In this document: positions 42,485-62,244 of the stretch, one piece after another | Layout of the letters: each line of letters starts with the position of its first letter | How positions within the stretch are numbered: position 1 is the stretch's first letter | DNA from: Dehalococcoidia bacterium | Lineage (GTDB): Bacteria > Chloroflexota > Dehalococcoidia > Lucifugimonadales > UBA1123 | NCBI GenBank assembly: GCA_965214745.1 | Contig: OZ243978.1 | Coordinates: 2,722,491 to 2,786,490, forward strand | Direction of reading: 5' to 3' | DNA length: 64,000 nucleotides | Program-made: the position numbers and the translations under genes | The notes under the pieces: generated by a model | What the model saw: only the letters and a program-made list of their open reading frames with translations | Told to the model about the DNA's origin: nothing | Database searches by the model: none

Positions 42485-43348
42485 TCAGCGCTCCTCTTCG
42501 AGGGTGAATACTTCCACATCGATTGAGCTTGCCAGTCGCCTGTCTTCCTCGCGTATCGAGTAGCCCATAACCGCCGCTATGGAACGCTCGGCGAACACGC
42601 TCTCCAGCGCGTCCGCCGACGCCCGCGCCCGCTCTATATCACGCGCGTTGATAACGCTGGACGCCTCGACCGCCACCCATACAGTGGTTCGGTCGATCTG
42701 GCGCTGCGCGCGCAGGACGAGGTCGGTCGCCGCTAGGCGCGTCTCTTGGCTAGGCGTAATCACGCCATCGTCGACGGCGTCGTATATGGGGTCGCGCATC
42801 TCCGGCTCGGCATCGATGGACACGGCGCTCTGCATGATGCGCGCCCTGCGAAGCCCCATCTTCTGGCTCAAGTAGGGCCTGATCCTGCGTGGCAGCTTGA
42901 CCTCTAAGCTGTCTCCTTTTAGAACGGCTACGTCTTGTTCGACGTTGGTGAGCCTGCCTTTGACCTCCACCATGTCCTCTTCGACGTTGGTGAGCCTGCC
43001 CTCTACGCCAGTGAGCCTGTCCTCTACGCCAGTGAGCCTGTCCTCTACGCCAGTGAGCCTGCCCTCCACGCCAGTGAGCCTGCCCTCCACGCCAGTGAGC
43101 CTGCCCTCCACGCCAGTGAGCCTATCCTCCACGCCGGTAAACCTGCCCTCCACCCCGGTGAGCCTGCCCTTGATCTCCGCCACGTCCGCCTCGATTGCGT
43201 CGAGATGCGCGGGCATTCCCAAGAACTCGTTGGTGAGCATTGCGCGCAGGAGCATACGTTGAGCGACGGGGTTCTCGTTCAGTTCGGCGATAATCCGCGC
43301 CACTAGGGACGAGGGATCTAGTTGTTCTACTGTCTGAGACATGGACAT
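42485..43348 (-). CDS. coiled-coil protein with nine RLTGVE(G/D) heptads and a C-terminal PD-(D/E)xK-like domain (hypothetical; paralogue of 48648..49340)
   Basis: 287 aa. N-terminal ...ELNENPVAQRMLLRAMLTNEFLGMP..., then the heptad array, then C-terminal ...DLVLRAQRQIDRTTVWVAVEASSVINARDIERA... Starts 5 nt after the stop of the upstream hotdog gene. Confidence 0.6.
   Translation of the reverse strand: MSMSQTVEQLDPSSLVARIIAELNENPVAQRMLLRAMLTNEFLGMPAHLDAIEADVAEIKGRLTGVEGRFTGVEDRLTGVEGRLTGVEGRLTGVEGRLTGVEDRLTGVEDRLTGVEGRLTNVEEDMVEVKGRLTNVEQDVAVLKGDSLEVKLPRRIRPYLSQKMGLRRARIMQSAVSIDAEPEMRDPIYDAVDDGVITPSQETRLAATDLVLRAQRQIDRTTVWVAVEASSVINARDIERARASADALESVFAERSIAAVMGYSIREEDRRLASSIDVEVFTLEEER
42990..43178. 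repeat. nine tandem 21-bp repeats (coding, heptad register)
   Basis: Plus-strand unit gtgagcctg(c/t)cctc(t/c)acgcca repeated from 42990. The last two units are degenerate, and two further diverged units lie upstream (~42945-42989). Confidence 0.9.
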
Positions 43349-57963: not shown

Positions 57964-58934
57964 CAGAATATGGCTATCGGGTTCACAGGCGAGCCAGTCG
58001 TGTTGTTGAGCCGCAGCGGTCCTATCGACAGCATGAACTCCCACCGCCCGCGCTCGCGGCAAGCTTGCGCCAGCTCCTCTAGGTTGGCGTTGTCGAGAAT
58101 CCACAGCCCCATCGCCACGATGCCCACTTGGTGGATGGGGTTGGACATGCTGGGATACCCGCTGGGCATTACGTCGTTTCCCGTATCGCTGCCTATCATG
58201 GCGATGCCGCGCTCGTGGAACAGCGGCAGGCAAGCCGCCTGACACGCCGACGAGCCTTCCTCGCGCGGGTTCCAAGGTCCTTCGACGTTGCGGCGGTGGA
58301 GGTTGCCCGTGCGAACCAGCAGAACGTCGCCTTCTTCCACGCGGAAGCCGCAGCGCTCTTCAGCCGCTAGGATGTCTTCCGGCATCACGCCTTCGCCGCG
58401 CTCCAGCCAGTCGACGCCGCGAATCATCGGCGCGTCCACCAGAACGCCGCGCGTAACTATGCCCTCCTTGGCAAGCTCTATGGATTCGACCGTCGCGCCC
58501 AGCCCGGTGGATACCAGATGCGCGGGCTGGTCGTTGTACATCTTGCCGTTCCAAAAGAAATGGGCAAGGCTGTCTACATGCGTAATCGCATAGCCGTGGA
58601 ATATCATTCCGAAGAAGTCCGTCGAGCCTTGAGCCGTGCGGGTAGTTACCTTCTCGCCGCTCGCCCACCCTTCGCCGCTCTCCGTCATGAAGTGGATTGG
58701 CGGGATGGGTATGTCGGGCGCAGGCTCGAACATCACCGTGCGAGCGCAGGATACCGTCGTCCCCTCCTCCACTAGCGACACCGCGCGCCGGACCTTGTCA
58801 GCCCCCAGGAAGTTGAGCGTGCCCATCTGGTCGTCGCCGCCCCACCTGCCCCAGTTGGAGAGCGAATCGAAGTATCCGAGAACTTCCCGCTCGGACGGAA
58901 TGTTGCCTGTAGTCATGGCGGATGCCCCTTTCAC
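57963..58934 (-). CDS. cyclase-family protein (kynurenine-formamidase-like fold)
   Basis: 323 aa. ...SNWGRWGGDDQMGTLN..., ...HGYAITHVDSLAHF..., ...GSDTGNDV... GTG start at 58934; alternative ATG at 58916. Confidence 0.8.
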   Translation of the reverse strand: MKGASAMTTGNIPSEREVLGYFDSLSNWGRWGGDDQMGTLNFLGADKVRRAVSLVEEGTTVSCARTVMFEPAPDIPIPPIHFMTESGEGWASGEKVTTRTAQGSTDFFGMIFHGYAITHVDSLAHFFWNGKMYNDQPAHLVSTGLGATVESIELAKEGIVTRGVLVDAPMIRGVDWLERGEGVMPEDILAAEERCGFRVEEGDVLLVRTGNLHRRNVEGPWNPREEGSSACQAACLPLFHERGIAMIGSDTGNDVMPSGYPSMSNPIHQVGIVAMGLWILDNANLEELAQACRERGRWEFMLSIGPLRLNNTTGSPVNPIAIF

Positions 58935-59122
58935 CTAACGCGGATTCTGTGTCAGCGCAGTATACAACATAGGCGGCTAGGCTTCGGGGGGATTGCTGCG
59001 AGCGAGCTTCGGAGTCTTGCCCCGCCCCGCTCGGTATCATTGAGCTTCGCCGCGCTCGTCCATTATAGTTATAATCTCTCGTAGACTGTCGGATCGAGTA
59101 CAATGGTGCCTTTTGCGATACT

Positions 59123-59142
59123 CCCCCCCCCCCCCCCCCCCC
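59123..59142 (+). repeat. poly(C) homopolymer, 20 nt
   Basis: Read directly: ctCCCCCCCCCCCCCCCCCCCCgcgg. Lies 16 nt upstream of the TTG start at 59159 and 17 nt downstream of ATG 59103-59105. Confidence 0.95.
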
Positions 59143-59158
59143 GCGGCTCTGGAATAAA

Positions 59159-60622
59159 TTGGCCAAGCTGACATTCGCGGCTCTGCTTGTCGCGCTTGCC
59201 TTCAGCATAACTTACACCTCATCCGCGACAGCGTTTTCCGACTACGATCTCAGGCAAATCATCCTATTCGGCGCCGCCGTCAACGCCGCTCTCCTGCTCG
59301 GAGCGCTGCTCCTGCCGCGCCCCAGAGTCGACGCCGCCGTCCTGTCGCTGATAGTTCTGGCGGGCGTGGGCACGGCGCACGTCGTTCACACCGACATCTA
59401 TCTTGGCGGCAGCCGCGTGGTTCTCGTTCTGTTGTGCGTCGCGCTATATTTCGGGCTGTTCACCGCCTTTCGCGCCATAGACGATCTACGCTGGGGCGGC
59501 GCGGCGTTCTCGGCGGCGACGCTTCTGGCGCTTGCGGCTGTCGTAGTCCCCCACTGGGCGGGCGGCGCCGGCACAGTGGAAGGAGATACGTCGAACATTC
59601 GAGAAATCACATTCCAAGAGACGCCGAATCTGTATTTCGTCTCTTTCGAGTCATTGGCGCCAATATCTCTGCTCGACAAACACATGGGTTTAGAAACCAC
59701 CAAATTTCACGATGTTTTCGAGTCGAACTTCCGCCGTTTTCCTAATTTCTTCGCCGACCTATCCTCCACAGAGGCTTCCCTCAACTCGCTTCTGTCGTTG
59801 GAAGTAGATGTGTACAGTTCGTTGCGCCGAGAGTTGCACAGTCGGGGCTACGATTCTAATCCGTACCTCTTCGCTGGCCAAAATCCCAGCCCATTGCTGG
59901 GAATCCTGCGTAAAAACGGCTATGAAACCACCACGGCATACGGTACCTTCTACTTTGGAAAGCGCAAAGGCGCTTATGTCGATAACTACTTCGTATCCCA
60001 GAAAAACTCCGTCTGCAATTTATTGGACGCCGAGGCGCGAAATCTGGCTTTCTGGGGATACTGCCAATTCTTCGACGGAGGTTTTGTCCGGGACGCTCCC
60101 ATAATCGAGCATATCGCGAAAGTGTACGACAACGACAAGCCTCAATTCGTGATGGCGCATCTGTCCGTGCCGGGGCATACGGGAAAATCTTTCAGGCACG
60201 ACGATACGGAACATCTGGAAGAATTCAGGCTTTGGTACAGCAGTAGGATCGAAGAAAGAGCTGTCAGCTATCTGGAGCCAATCATCCAGAATTTGGAAGA
60301 AAACGACCCCAGCGCCATCCTGTTAGTGTACGGCGATCATGGACCAATTCTGTCAAGAGGCGTGGAGTTCGAGGACAACCCGGAGTTCGTCGTTCAGGAC
60401 AAGTATGGCATTCTAGGCGGCGTCTATCCCTCCGACGCCTGCGCCGTTTGGTTCGACGAAGCATCGGCGCAAGGCTACATGACTATCTTGAATGCCGTTC
60501 ACGCCCTGCTTCGCTGCCTGTCCGGCGGTGAAAGCGCGCTTGTCGAACCGCTGAAGCACAGGCTGGGCCGGTATAGTTCAATTCCCAACAATCTTGACTA
60601 CAAGGAGTTTGTGTATGAATGA
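59159..60622 (+). CDS. membrane-anchored sulfatase-like / alkaline-phosphatase-superfamily protein (LtaS/EptA-like)
   Basis: 487 aa, TTG start, ~5 N-terminal TM segments. Then NLYFVSFESLAP, STEASLNSLLS, MAHLSVPGH, LLVYGDHGP motifs. Visibly lower GC than the flanks. Confidence 0.6.
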   Translation: MAKLTFAALLVALAFSITYTSSATAFSDYDLRQIILFGAAVNAALLLGALLLPRPRVDAAVLSLIVLAGVGTAHVVHTDIYLGGSRVVLVLLCVALYFGLFTAFRAIDDLRWGGAAFSAATLLALAAVVVPHWAGGAGTVEGDTSNIREITFQETPNLYFVSFESLAPISLLDKHMGLETTKFHDVFESNFRRFPNFFADLSSTEASLNSLLSLEVDVYSSLRRELHSRGYDSNPYLFAGQNPSPLLGILRKNGYETTTAYGTFYFGKRKGAYVDNYFVSQKNSVCNLLDAEARNLAFWGYCQFFDGGFVRDAPIIEHIAKVYDNDKPQFVMAHLSVPGHTGKSFRHDDTEHLEEFRLWYSSRIEERAVSYLEPIIQNLEENDPSAILLVYGDHGPILSRGVEFEDNPEFVVQDKYGILGGVYPSDACAVWFDEASAQGYMTILNAVHALLRCLSGGESALVEPLKHRLGRYSSIPNNLDYKEFVYE

Positions 60623-60824
60623 GTCGCCGACAATCATCCTCGCCTACGTAGACCCCGGCGCCGCCGGCTTCATCGTAGTATCCGTTCTGGGCTTCTTGGC
60701 TGCGATTGGATACACCATTCGTTCGCACTTCGCGCGCCTCAAAGCGCTCGTATTCCGCAGCGCCCGAAACGGGAGCGAAGACACGGCTGCCGACACGGAA
60801 CGCGAGCCGCGCGTTGGCGCCTGA
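60615..60824 (+). CDS. small membrane protein (hypothetical)
   Basis: 69 aa from ATG 60615, overlapping the stop of the upstream gene (ATGAATGA). MNESPTIILAYVDPGAAGFIVVSVLGFLAAIGY..., one TM helix. Confidence 0.4.
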   Translation: MNESPTIILAYVDPGAAGFIVVSVLGFLAAIGYTIRSHFARLKALVFRSARNGSEDTAADTEREPRVGA

Positions 60825-62244
60825 CATCGAGCCGGACGCCGGCTCGTTCAAGGACCCGGCGGGGCGGGTGTACCGCGTCTCCGGCGAATCGGGCTGCGAA
60901 CGCATCGTTCGCGGCCTGAATCGGGACGCGGCCTCGACGATTCGACGGCTGCTCGCCGAGCCGTTCTTCAGGGAGCTGATTGCCGACGGCAGCGTCGTCG
61001 CTACCCGTCTGCTCGACGCCGAGCGCGCGGATGTTCAGCGCATACTGGCGGACGGCTGGAGCGCGGCGGTGGAGCACGAGCCGCTGGACTTCATTACCTA
61101 CCCTTACGAGTGGGCGTTCTCGATGCTCAGGGACGCGGCTCTGCTTCAGCTGCGCCTGCTGAAAGCGAGCGTTCGGAACGGCTGGACGCTCAAAGACGCC
61201 ACGCCCTTCAACATCCAGTGGGCGGGCGCTCGCCCCGTGTTCATAGACGCGCCGTCGTTCGTCCCGCGGGATGACGGCGAATACTGGCGCGGCTACCGCC
61301 AGTTCTGCGCGATGTTTCTTACGCCCCTTCTGCTGACCGCGCATCTGGGCATACCGTTCCAACCGCTGCTTCGCTCGCGGCTCGAAGGCATCCCGCCGGA
61401 TGAGGCGGCAAGATACTTCTACGGACTGCGGCGATTCAAGCGCGGCGTCATGTCTCACATCTGGTTTCCCGCCAAAGCCGAGAGCCGCGCCCGGCGGCGC
61501 GGGAGCGATGAACGCCGCCCGCGCGCGCGCAGGCGCCGCCGCCGACAGCCGAAGACGAATCTGCTGGCTCTTCTGGACAGCCTAGAGAGGCTCGTCGCCA
61601 AGCTCTCTTACGGACGAACGCGCTCGGACTGGGCGCGGTACGCCTCGACCCACTCCTACGAGGAAGCGGACTTCGAGCTAAAGAGGGGCTTCGTTCTGCG
61701 TCACATAGAGTCGCGCCGTCCGCGTCTGACGTGGGACTTGGGCGCGAACACGGGTGAAATATCGCGCGTAGCAGCCCAGCATTCGGGAACCGTCGTAGCG
61801 GTGGACGCGGACGCGGACGCCGTAGAGCTTCTCTACCGCGAGACGCGGGCGCGCGGACCGCGCAACATCATCCCCCTGGTGATGGACTTGGCGAACCCCT
61901 CGCCGGCGCAGGGTTGGGCTGGCGGCGAGCGCGCGGCGCTCGACCAGCGTCGAAGCCCAGACGCGGCGCTCTGCCTCGCGCTGGTCCATCACATGCGCGT
62001 TTCCGCCAACATCCCCCTGCCGATGTTCATCCAGTGGCTTCGCAGCCTGAACGCGGCTATCGTCTTGGAGTTCGTCGGGCGCGAGGATGAGATGTTCCAG
62101 CGGCTTATCGAAAACAAGGAGGAAGATTACGCCGACTACACCGCGGAGAACTTCGAGGCGGAAATAGGCAAGCGCTTCACAACGCGCGATCGCCTGAAGC
62201 TGAAGGGCGGCTTGCGGGAGCTGTTCTTGCTGGAACCGGTCTGA
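60814..62244 (+). CDS. class I SAM-dependent methyltransferase with N-terminal uncharacterised domain
   Basis: ORF open from 60706. Likely start is TTG 60814 (LAPDIEPDAGSFKDPAGRVYRV...). C-terminal SAM motif I TWDLGANTGEIS and ...VVAVDADADAV. Confidence 0.6.
   Translation: MAPDIEPDAGSFKDPAGRVYRVSGESGCERIVRGLNRDAASTIRRLLAEPFFRELIADGSVVATRLLDAERADVQRILADGWSAAVEHEPLDFITYPYEWAFSMLRDAALLQLRLLKASVRNGWTLKDATPFNIQWAGARPVFIDAPSFVPRDDGEYWRGYRQFCAMFLTPLLLTAHLGIPFQPLLRSRLEGIPPDEAARYFYGLRRFKRGVMSHIWFPAKAESRARRRGSDERRPRARRRRRRQPKTNLLALLDSLERLVAKLSYGRTRSDWARYASTHSYEEADFELKRGFVLRHIESRRPRLTWDLGANTGEISRVAAQHSGTVVAVDADADAVELLYRETRARGPRNIIPLVMDLANPSPAQGWAGGERAALDQRRSPDAALCLALVHHMRVSANIPLPMFIQWLRSLNAAIVLEFVGREDEMFQRLIENKEEDYADYTAENFEAEIGKRFTTRDRLKLKGGLRELFLLEPV

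Follow-up and report, generated by a model that had tools for sequence, protein, structure and literature searches.

A long poly(C) tract near the start of a membrane-enzyme gene as a candidate slipped-strand switch in uncultured bacteria

The poly(C) tract and the genes at the locus

The stretch of DNA analysed here, hereafter the window, covers 64,000 nucleotides (nt) of a Dehalococcoidia bacterium (contig OZ243978.1, positions 2,722,491 to 2,786,490), and carries a gene for a putative membrane enzyme in which the start codon and the body of the open reading frame (ORF) are separated by an uninterrupted run of 20 C residues, C20, at 59123-59142. Coordinates are window positions, and all features listed at the locus lie on the + strand. 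The run stands 20 nt past the start codon, ATG 59103, and is preceded by a leader that reads MVPFAI- (59103-59122). No other homopolymer in the 64-kb window exceeds 7 nt, the length of the next longest, and the base counts (G+C content, 63.3%) give a chance expectation of about 1e-5 for C or G runs of at least 20 nt in 64 kb. A promoter-like region, recognized by match to the consensus only, lies upstream at 59040-59075 and consists of TTGAGC-N18-TATAGT (59040-59069) and an overlapping TATAAT (59070-59075). A preliminary description of this DNA, made from the sequence alone, had pointed to the TATAAT hexamer, which is present as described, with the consensus scan favouring TTGAGC-N18-TATAGT over it.

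The same description had placed the tract between an ATG that is out of frame and a long ORF that, as assembled, can start only at a weak TTG, and the sequence bears out each of these elements exactly. From ATG 59103, the assembled C20 allele encodes MVPFAILPPPPPPRGSGINWPS, a dead-end frame of 22 codons (59103-59171) closed by the TGA at 59169-59171. The frame of the long ORF is open from 59075 across the tract, has no ATG, GTG or TTG earlier than TTG 59159, and runs from that codon to 60622 as a protein of 487 amino acids (aa). When tract lengths from C14 to C26 were simulated for their effect on the frames, C15, C18, C21 and C24 joined ATG 59103 to the long ORF, giving proteins of 504-507 aa in which the tract is read as poly-proline; the earlier claim that C18, C21 or C24 would bring the ATG into frame therefore stands. 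At lengths not divisible by three the product of ATG 59103 was only 16-24 aa long: lengths of 3n+1 (C16, C19, C22, C25) left only the weak TTG 59113 in frame, and lengths of 3n+2, including C20, ran into a dead end after 20-24 codons. Thus, gain of one C or loss of two from the assembled C20 restores the fusion of ATG 59103 to the long ORF.

Two other kinds of regulatory element were considered for this region and set aside. No Rfam family matched within 58700-59500, which rules out a known riboswitch or leader RNA as the explanation, and a switch of the promoter-spacer type is ruled out by position, the tract lying downstream of both the promoter-like hexamers and the ATG.

The product of the long ORF (59159-60622) matched a single Pfam family, Sulfatase (PF00884), over residues 178-407 with 29.9 bits against a cut-off of 25. 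NCBIfam gave no match to the window protein, which by sequence thus belongs to no curated EptA, LtaS or OpgE family; a second Pfam family did not match either, and a profile search of PDB sequences with the enzyme returned nothing at an expectation value (E) <= 1. The AlphaFold2 (AF2) model combines a confident, presumably extracytoplasmic catalytic domain with five poorly resolved N-terminal helices (residues 2-21, 28-51, 55-77, 86-110 and 114-133; predicted local distance difference test score below 50). Foldseek placed EcEptC (E = 3e-10), full-length NmEptA and CjEptC at the top, followed by PbgA/YejM and LtaS/LtaP, all with modest template-modelling (TM) scores, so that phosphoethanolamine transferases, PbgA/YejM and LtaS/LtaP ranked above true sulfatases. 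The window protein lacks the formylglycine motif C/S-x-P-x-R, which only 18 of 120 relatives have anywhere in their sequence, without conservation; this rules out a formylglycine-dependent sulfatase. T204, the candidate nucleophile, opens a helix in the model and is invariant, as are D393-H394 of GDHG, a candidate metal-binding pair; both assignments go by position only. We infer that the enzyme is a membrane phospho-form transferase-like member of the alkaline-phosphatase superfamily, EptA/LtaS-like in its predicted structure. This refines the earlier label of a sulfatase-like membrane protein: a true sulfatase is not meant, since the motif is missing and the best structural matches are phosphoethanolamine transferases. 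A library of 1.84 billion cluster representatives contains 283 members of the family at E <= 1e-30, which makes it distinct and of moderate size; it has no curated annotation.

Two further genes follow closely. The stop codon of the enzyme gene overlaps the ATG of an ORF for a small membrane protein of 69 aa (60615-60824; overlap ATGAATGA at 60615-22), which has a conserved AYVDPGsAGF and one helix, and the end of this ORF in turn overlaps the TTG start (60814) of a 476-aa protein (60814-62244) that joins a tentatively kinase-like part to a class I S-adenosylmethionine (SAM) methyltransferase. By this arrangement, the enzyme gene heads an operon of three overlapping genes. The two genes behind it may be translationally coupled to it, in which case the tract may gate the whole cassette, and a switch at the tract may affect more than one protein.

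Length and frame polymorphism at a conserved tract position

The closest relative of the enzyme, P0002, is 88% identical to the window product and presumably a paralogue elsewhere in the same genome. Its N-terminus, available as protein sequence only, is MPFAIPPPPPRLWNKLAKLTFAALL (MPFAI-P5-RLWNKLAKLTF) with five prolines, and it is the one predicted for the in-frame fused product, with a shorter tract. Because P0002 begins MPFAI-P5-RLWNKLAKL, ATG 59103 is supported as a real start codon. Further relatives, 56-63% identical and about 500-515 aa long, share a layout of a short variable leader, a run of 3-11 prolines and a conserved first helix, FKFVFA...TYTSS; the DNA of two such relatives has C26 and C35. 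No proline run of two or more residues was found in 77 of the 120 relatives.

A comparison with related metagenome-assembled genomes (MAGs), which the preliminary description had named as a check on its inference, was carried out here. Many independent assemblies, from many phyla, proved to have a tract at the homologous position, and its length ranged from C6 to C36. A scan of one genome per species yielded 60 loci (numbered with the prefix L below), and the MAGs were labelled Dehalococcoidia, Chloroflexota, Caldilineaceae, Gammaproteobacteria, Pseudomonadales, Ectothiorhodospiraceae, Azotimanducaceae, Entotheonella, Latescibacteria, Gemmatimonadota, Longimicrobiales, Vicinamibacterales, Syntrophobacterales, Nitrospirales, Pedosphaera, Acidimicrobiales, Binatia and Spirochaetia, or about 12 phyla. 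For the tract itself, the survey took in 79 gene copies whose 5′ region is complete. In 19 of these, a run of 9 nt or more (18 of C, one of G) stood at the homologous place, just ahead of the first membrane helix, and the lengths were bimodally distributed, with C3-7 in 58 copies, 9-12 in 5 and C17-36 in 14. The tract lengths seen include C11, C12, C17, C18, C19, C21, C22, C23, C26, C28, C35 and C36, and these tracts occurred under the labels Dehalococcoidia, Gammaproteobacteria, Entotheonella, Vicinamibacterales, Nitrospirales, Pedosphaera and Longimicrobiales. In the family the tract sits 470-580 nt upstream of a PNLYFVSF motif. Homopolymers of at least 9 nt numbered 25 in the 519 kb of fetched loci, and most of them were this family's 5′ tract. 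In L003, L005, L021, L038, L057 and L059 no in-frame ATG, GTG or TTG follows within about 100 nt of the tract, so in these copies the tract must be translated.

Some copies depart from the common layout. The coding strand carries G9 and G10 at the 5′ ends of copies in L023 (1020-1028, labelled Syntrophobacterales) and L061 (3469-3478, labelled Acidimicrobiales). In L045 (3392-3430) C22 at the 5′ end is followed directly by (AC)8, and a second frameshift lies further downstream. A C14 in L052 (3861-3874) is located between the last membrane helix and the catalytic domain of a family gene, and reads GVPPPPPVSGD. L034 (7202-7219) has the usual leader and C18 joined directly to the C-terminal third of the enzyme, a deletion remnant in a tandem array. 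In L038, some 1.7 kb past the cassette on its downstream side, a C16 (8367-8382) closely precedes another hydrophobic frame, which possibly encodes a membrane protein.

Near-identical copies, compared over the 600 nt downstream of the tract, where they are 93-99% identical, differ widely in tract length. Close copies in three Dehalococcoidia MAGs have C26, C28 and C18; another pair has C35 and C6, and the lineage with C35 includes additional alleles with C19 and C9; close copies within a single gammaproteobacterial genome have C17, C6, C6 and C23; and one set of close copies has C36, C6, C7 and C11, with C36 against C6 seen between two tandem copies that are 99.2% identical. A range from C6 to C36 cannot be sequencing error.

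The reading frame varies together with the length. The cluster of protein P0041 at 90% protein identity has 16 members from 16 contigs, and four classes of N-terminus were found among them: MQMAQLSRKYQRC followed by P3, P4, P5 or P6; M and then P3, P4, P5 or P7, from a second ATG placed immediately ahead of the tract in a different frame; MRNH... and then P9; and truncated gene calls that start inside the first helix (MAFAATYTSS). Across clusters at this level of identity, alleles run from P2 to P9 in two reading frames, besides the truncated "off" gene calls. The P0041 cluster forms one lineage with L002, L010, L067 and L068, in which ATGs in two frames stand immediately before the tract, and because of these two ATGs the full-length protein is made, with one leader or another, at two out of three tract lengths. 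When the 19 copies with runs of 9 nt or more were sorted by frame, an upstream ATG was in frame in 6, only a TTG or GTG was in frame in 4, no upstream start was in frame in 8, and one was disrupted elsewhere. In-frame and out-of-frame states are about equally common, a pattern that would be produced by a freely drifting tract. Taken together, these are the signs expected of a slippage-prone repeat that drifts through all three frames.

A candidate frame switch and competing explanations

We consider it likely that C20 acts as a slippage-driven, tract-length-dependent on/off switch of the membrane-enzyme gene. Lying early in the coding sequence, past ATG 59103 and ahead of the first membrane helix, the tract would be a hypermutable simple-sequence repeat that gains or loses C residues through slipped-strand mispairing at replication. 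At lengths of 15, 18, 21 or 24 the ATG would be in frame and the full-length protein would be made with a cytoplasmic M-VPFAI-Pn-R leader. At C20 translation would end after 22 codons, and the ORF body would be reached only from the weak TTG 59159, so that expression would be off or low. The small membrane protein and the kinase-like/methyltransferase protein would probably be lowered too, their genes overlapping the stop codons of their predecessors. Switching of this kind would be reversible within a population; the arrangement of the sequence also suggests that it would change expression, with polar effects on the genes downstream, and that the product may help to modify the cell surface. 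The preliminary description had already inferred a slipped-strand frame switch at this tract, and its inference is backed by the fused N-terminus of the paralogue, by the homologous position of the tracts and by near-identical copies that differ in length and frame.

Several findings weigh against this reading or limit it. Since a start at TTG 59159 falls 10 nt before the stop of the dead-end frame, expression at C20 may be low instead of absent, and fallback starts after the tract are present at other loci as well. As many as 58 of the 79 family copies have only C3-C7, and for this reason the switch would have to be optional for the family. Four of the clearest out-of-frame loci (the window, L004, L034 and L042) would each come into frame with exactly one more C, a pattern that systematic under-calling of long homopolymers could mimic; the assembled tract length at the locus itself could likewise be off by a base. 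Finally, on/off calls depend on guessed start codons.

In a first alternative explanation the tract is a rheostat rather than a switch: RNA polymerase slippage, yielding mRNAs of mixed lengths, would together with fallback starts and two-frame starts give some full-length protein at every tract length, and the tract and its poly-proline would tune the amount through elongation factor P (EF-P), which helps ribosomes past runs of proline. It is established that polymerases slip on long homopolymers and that ribosomes stall where prolines follow one another, and both phenomena count for this explanation, as does TTG 59159, which lies within the last codons of the 22-codon frame and from which a protein with an intact first helix would be made, and so does the lineage with ATGs in two frames. 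It is nevertheless difficult to reconcile with the several relatives that have no in-frame start codon within about 100 nt after the tract, and with the truncated products that gene callers give for out-of-frame alleles. We regard the rheostat as unlikely, and it would in any case modify the switch by DNA slippage and not replace it.

A second explanation, which we hold to be rather improbable, is neutral decay, by which the tract would be a mutational hotspot without adaptive role and the C20 allele a dying, frameshifted copy of a redundant paralogue. The genome does appear to hold an intact paralogue at 88% identity, the low G+C content of the catalytic part (see below) suggests recent acquisition, and the family includes remnants and disrupted copies, such as the deletion remnant of L034, the second frameshift of L045 and the split matches of L051 and L062. 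However, the 487-codon ORF is otherwise intact and 56-63% identical to full-length relatives, and the downstream operon genes are also intact, with 59-74% conservation. Pure runs of C17-C36 without point mutations, at one codon position in at least seven phylum-level groups, are moreover hard to explain without maintenance.

The codon content of the tract bears on a third explanation, that an N-terminal proline-rich tail is needed and always in frame, the out-of-frame calls being homopolymer sequencing errors. This would fit the P3-P11 found just before the first helix in many relatives, as well as the four clear out-of-frame loci that are each one C short. Of the proline codons in the window 51% are CCG and 30% CCC, whereas the tract is pure CCC, and with such a preference for CCG selection for proline alone would not give a run of this kind. 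The 2 to 11 prolines among alleles more than 90% identical and the 77 of 120 relatives without a proline run of at least two residues also speak against a required tail, and alleles with short runs that can be read reliably, C9 in L068 and C6-C7 in L004 and L051, are out of frame too. A constitutive tail is very improbable on this evidence.

Just as improbable is an artefact of assembly, either a spurious poly-G/poly-C insertion or a chimeric join. It would draw on the weakness of homopolymers on every sequencing platform and on Illumina contigs of other samples that end in adapter-like sequence beside the site. Against it stand the leader-tract-body layout, shared by the paralogue and dozens of loci whose assemblies name their contigs in differing styles, and an upstream flank that independent assemblies reproduce identically until 2 nt short of the tract. 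That flank was recovered from two independent Illumina assemblies of other samples, which the neighbouring genes show to contain the same strain: one contig follows the window up to 59120, 2 nt short of the tract, and continues into adapter-like sequence, and the second ends 84 nt earlier. The Illumina contig of a relative, L009, starts inside its own tract. Short-read assemblies therefore break at the tract; they confirm the flank and do not give the length. Given this recurrence of the flank and of the layout, the two sides of the tract are not a chimeric join. No other assembly spanning the exact locus was found: the matching Illumina contigs break off no later than the tract, a 26-nt pattern from the DNA downstream of it had no match in JGI metagenome contigs, and exact look-ups of the 487-aa product and of P0002 gave no contig.

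These assemblies also gave two observations of their own. Adapter-like sequence (AGATCGGAAGAGCACACGTCTGA...) stands beside the tract region in L065 (1-30) and L066 (1-50), representing untrimmed adapter in deposited Illumina assemblies. L064 (1-612), an Illumina contig from another sample, matches the window at 60011-60622 except in its last ~130 nt, which contain 12 clustered mismatches and whose last ~25 residues read as in P0002; this reflects either gene conversion between paralogues or an assembly chimera.

Known systems, possible spread of the cassette and neighbouring features

Contingency loci built on homopolymers count as a hallmark of host-adapted pathogens, Neisseria, Campylobacter, Haemophilus and Bordetella among them. 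A close counterpart is pptA of Neisseria meningitidis and N. gonorrhoeae, which encodes a membrane phospho-form transferase, the class to which the best structural matches of the window protein belong. It has a poly-G tract within the ORF, with 8G on and 7, 9 or 10G off, so that a change in length shifts the frame and toggles a surface decoration (PMC3656113). The two differ in that the pptA tract is a run of 7-11 G that encodes glycine and is not at the extreme N-terminus, whereas the window tract is C20 (up to C36 in relatives) and lies 20 nt after the start codon; furthermore, pptA is a single-copy core gene of one genus, and the window family occurs in tandem arrays and in many phyla. Searches of Pfam, NCBIfam and PDB profiles gave no sequence-level relationship between the window enzyme and pptA. 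The tracts of the window family are two to four times longer than that of pptA.

Neisseria eptA (lptA), the gene of the lipid A phosphoethanolamine transferase, likewise contains a homopolymeric tract within the ORF (PMC10525099). The structure of full-length EptA (5fgn) ranks with the top Foldseek matches of the window enzyme, although the match is weak (TM about 0.36-0.39, 12% identity), and EptA-specific models of Pfam and NCBIfam gave no match. Many hosts of the window family are labelled Chloroflexota, which are generally not known to have lipid A.

The tracts of Campylobacter jejuni contingency loci are typically about 8-13 nt long. These loci (Cj1295 and others) resemble the window family in being paralogous surface-modification genes, each with its own intragenic G or C homopolymer, that together give combinatorial surface states (PMC3068675, PMC8355987), and they differ in belonging to other protein families and to one pathogen genus, as opposed to a cassette common to many phyla. 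Inactivation by 5′ homopolymeric tracts, exemplified by the poly(A) of Listeria monocytogenes inlA and described in a survey of 99 genomes, is alike in its very short out-of-frame product and high-frequency reversion; that survey found short poly(A) and poly(T) tracts to be enriched, unlike the very long poly(C) seen here in genomes of about 63% G+C (PMC2831843). Compared with known systems in general, the window family stands apart in the start codons in two frames in one lineage and in a separate tract for each tandem paralogue. The proposed mechanism matches that of Neisseria pptA and eptA, which supports the view that the locus is a homopolymer phase-variation switch on a gene for a putative surface enzyme, in an unexpected setting.

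Here the same device would occur in uncultured bacteria of many phyla, Chloroflexota among them, that are represented by complete MAGs and are probably associated with sponges. Entotheonella are described as uncultivated sponge symbionts (PMC12858407), and the mix of taxa in which the family was found (Entotheonella, Caldilineaceae, Dehalococcoidia, Latescibacteria, Nitrospirales and Binatia) suggests marine sponges, as judged from the taxon labels together with the Entotheonella literature. Full-text searches brought up no report of repeat-driven phase variation in sponge symbionts. The tract also creates an annotation problem, since gene callers truncate or re-start the gene according to tract length, and alleles of one gene are annotated as 480 to 530 aa with differing N-termini.

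The catalytic part of the enzyme gene (59400-60600) has a G+C content of 49-54%, compared to 63-70% in neighbouring genes, and this low value suggests acquired DNA. Across phyla the family retains a high identity of 55-63%, and some loci adjoin transposase or mobile-element genes. Together, the low G+C content, the high cross-phylum identity and the mobile-element neighbours at some loci suggest horizontal spread among bacteria that share a habitat. Tentatively, and with somewhat less than even probability, the poly-C may be an inherited working part of a mobile three-gene cassette, consisting of 1-5 tandem enzymes, the small membrane protein and the kinase-like/methyltransferase fusion, and this cassette may have passed horizontally between uncultured symbionts that live together and belong to about a dozen phyla. 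In that case, mutualists would have a contingency locus in the style of pathogens, and independently switching paralogues would give combinatorial surface states that could serve, for example, in escaping host phagocytosis or phages. A phage-borne cassette is not supported, as no IMG/VR viral contig carries a relative of the enzyme. The tract as a cassette boundary or integration site was ruled out, because tandem copies stay 88-98% identical over the 300 nt upstream of it. At individual loci, four tandem Uma2-family genes lie upstream of the cassette and a DDE transposase downstream in L001 (1-2519), and helicase, RadC and Toprim genes lie upstream of it in L002.

Tandem arrays of the enzyme gene include five family copies in L049 and three each in L008 and L016, and in most loci with downstream DNA present the third gene follows one to several tandem enzyme genes, with a single copy after the array in L008. 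The third gene is 59-74% identical across phyla. Its model has a protein-kinase-like N-terminal fold with weak matches to RIO and CK2 kinases, and D128-x4-N133 and D145 are invariant; the kinase-like assignment of this fold is tentative, and the C-terminal domain is a class I SAM methyltransferase. Residues 288-401 of the product (P0121), within the methyltransferase region, weakly match PADLOC mad2 of the MADS defence system (26.7 bits), which is probably generic methyltransferase similarity. Elsewhere in the window, a tandem repeat at 42990-43170 has a 21-nt unit in 8.6 copies with 91% matches, and may encode an in-frame 7-residue repeat.

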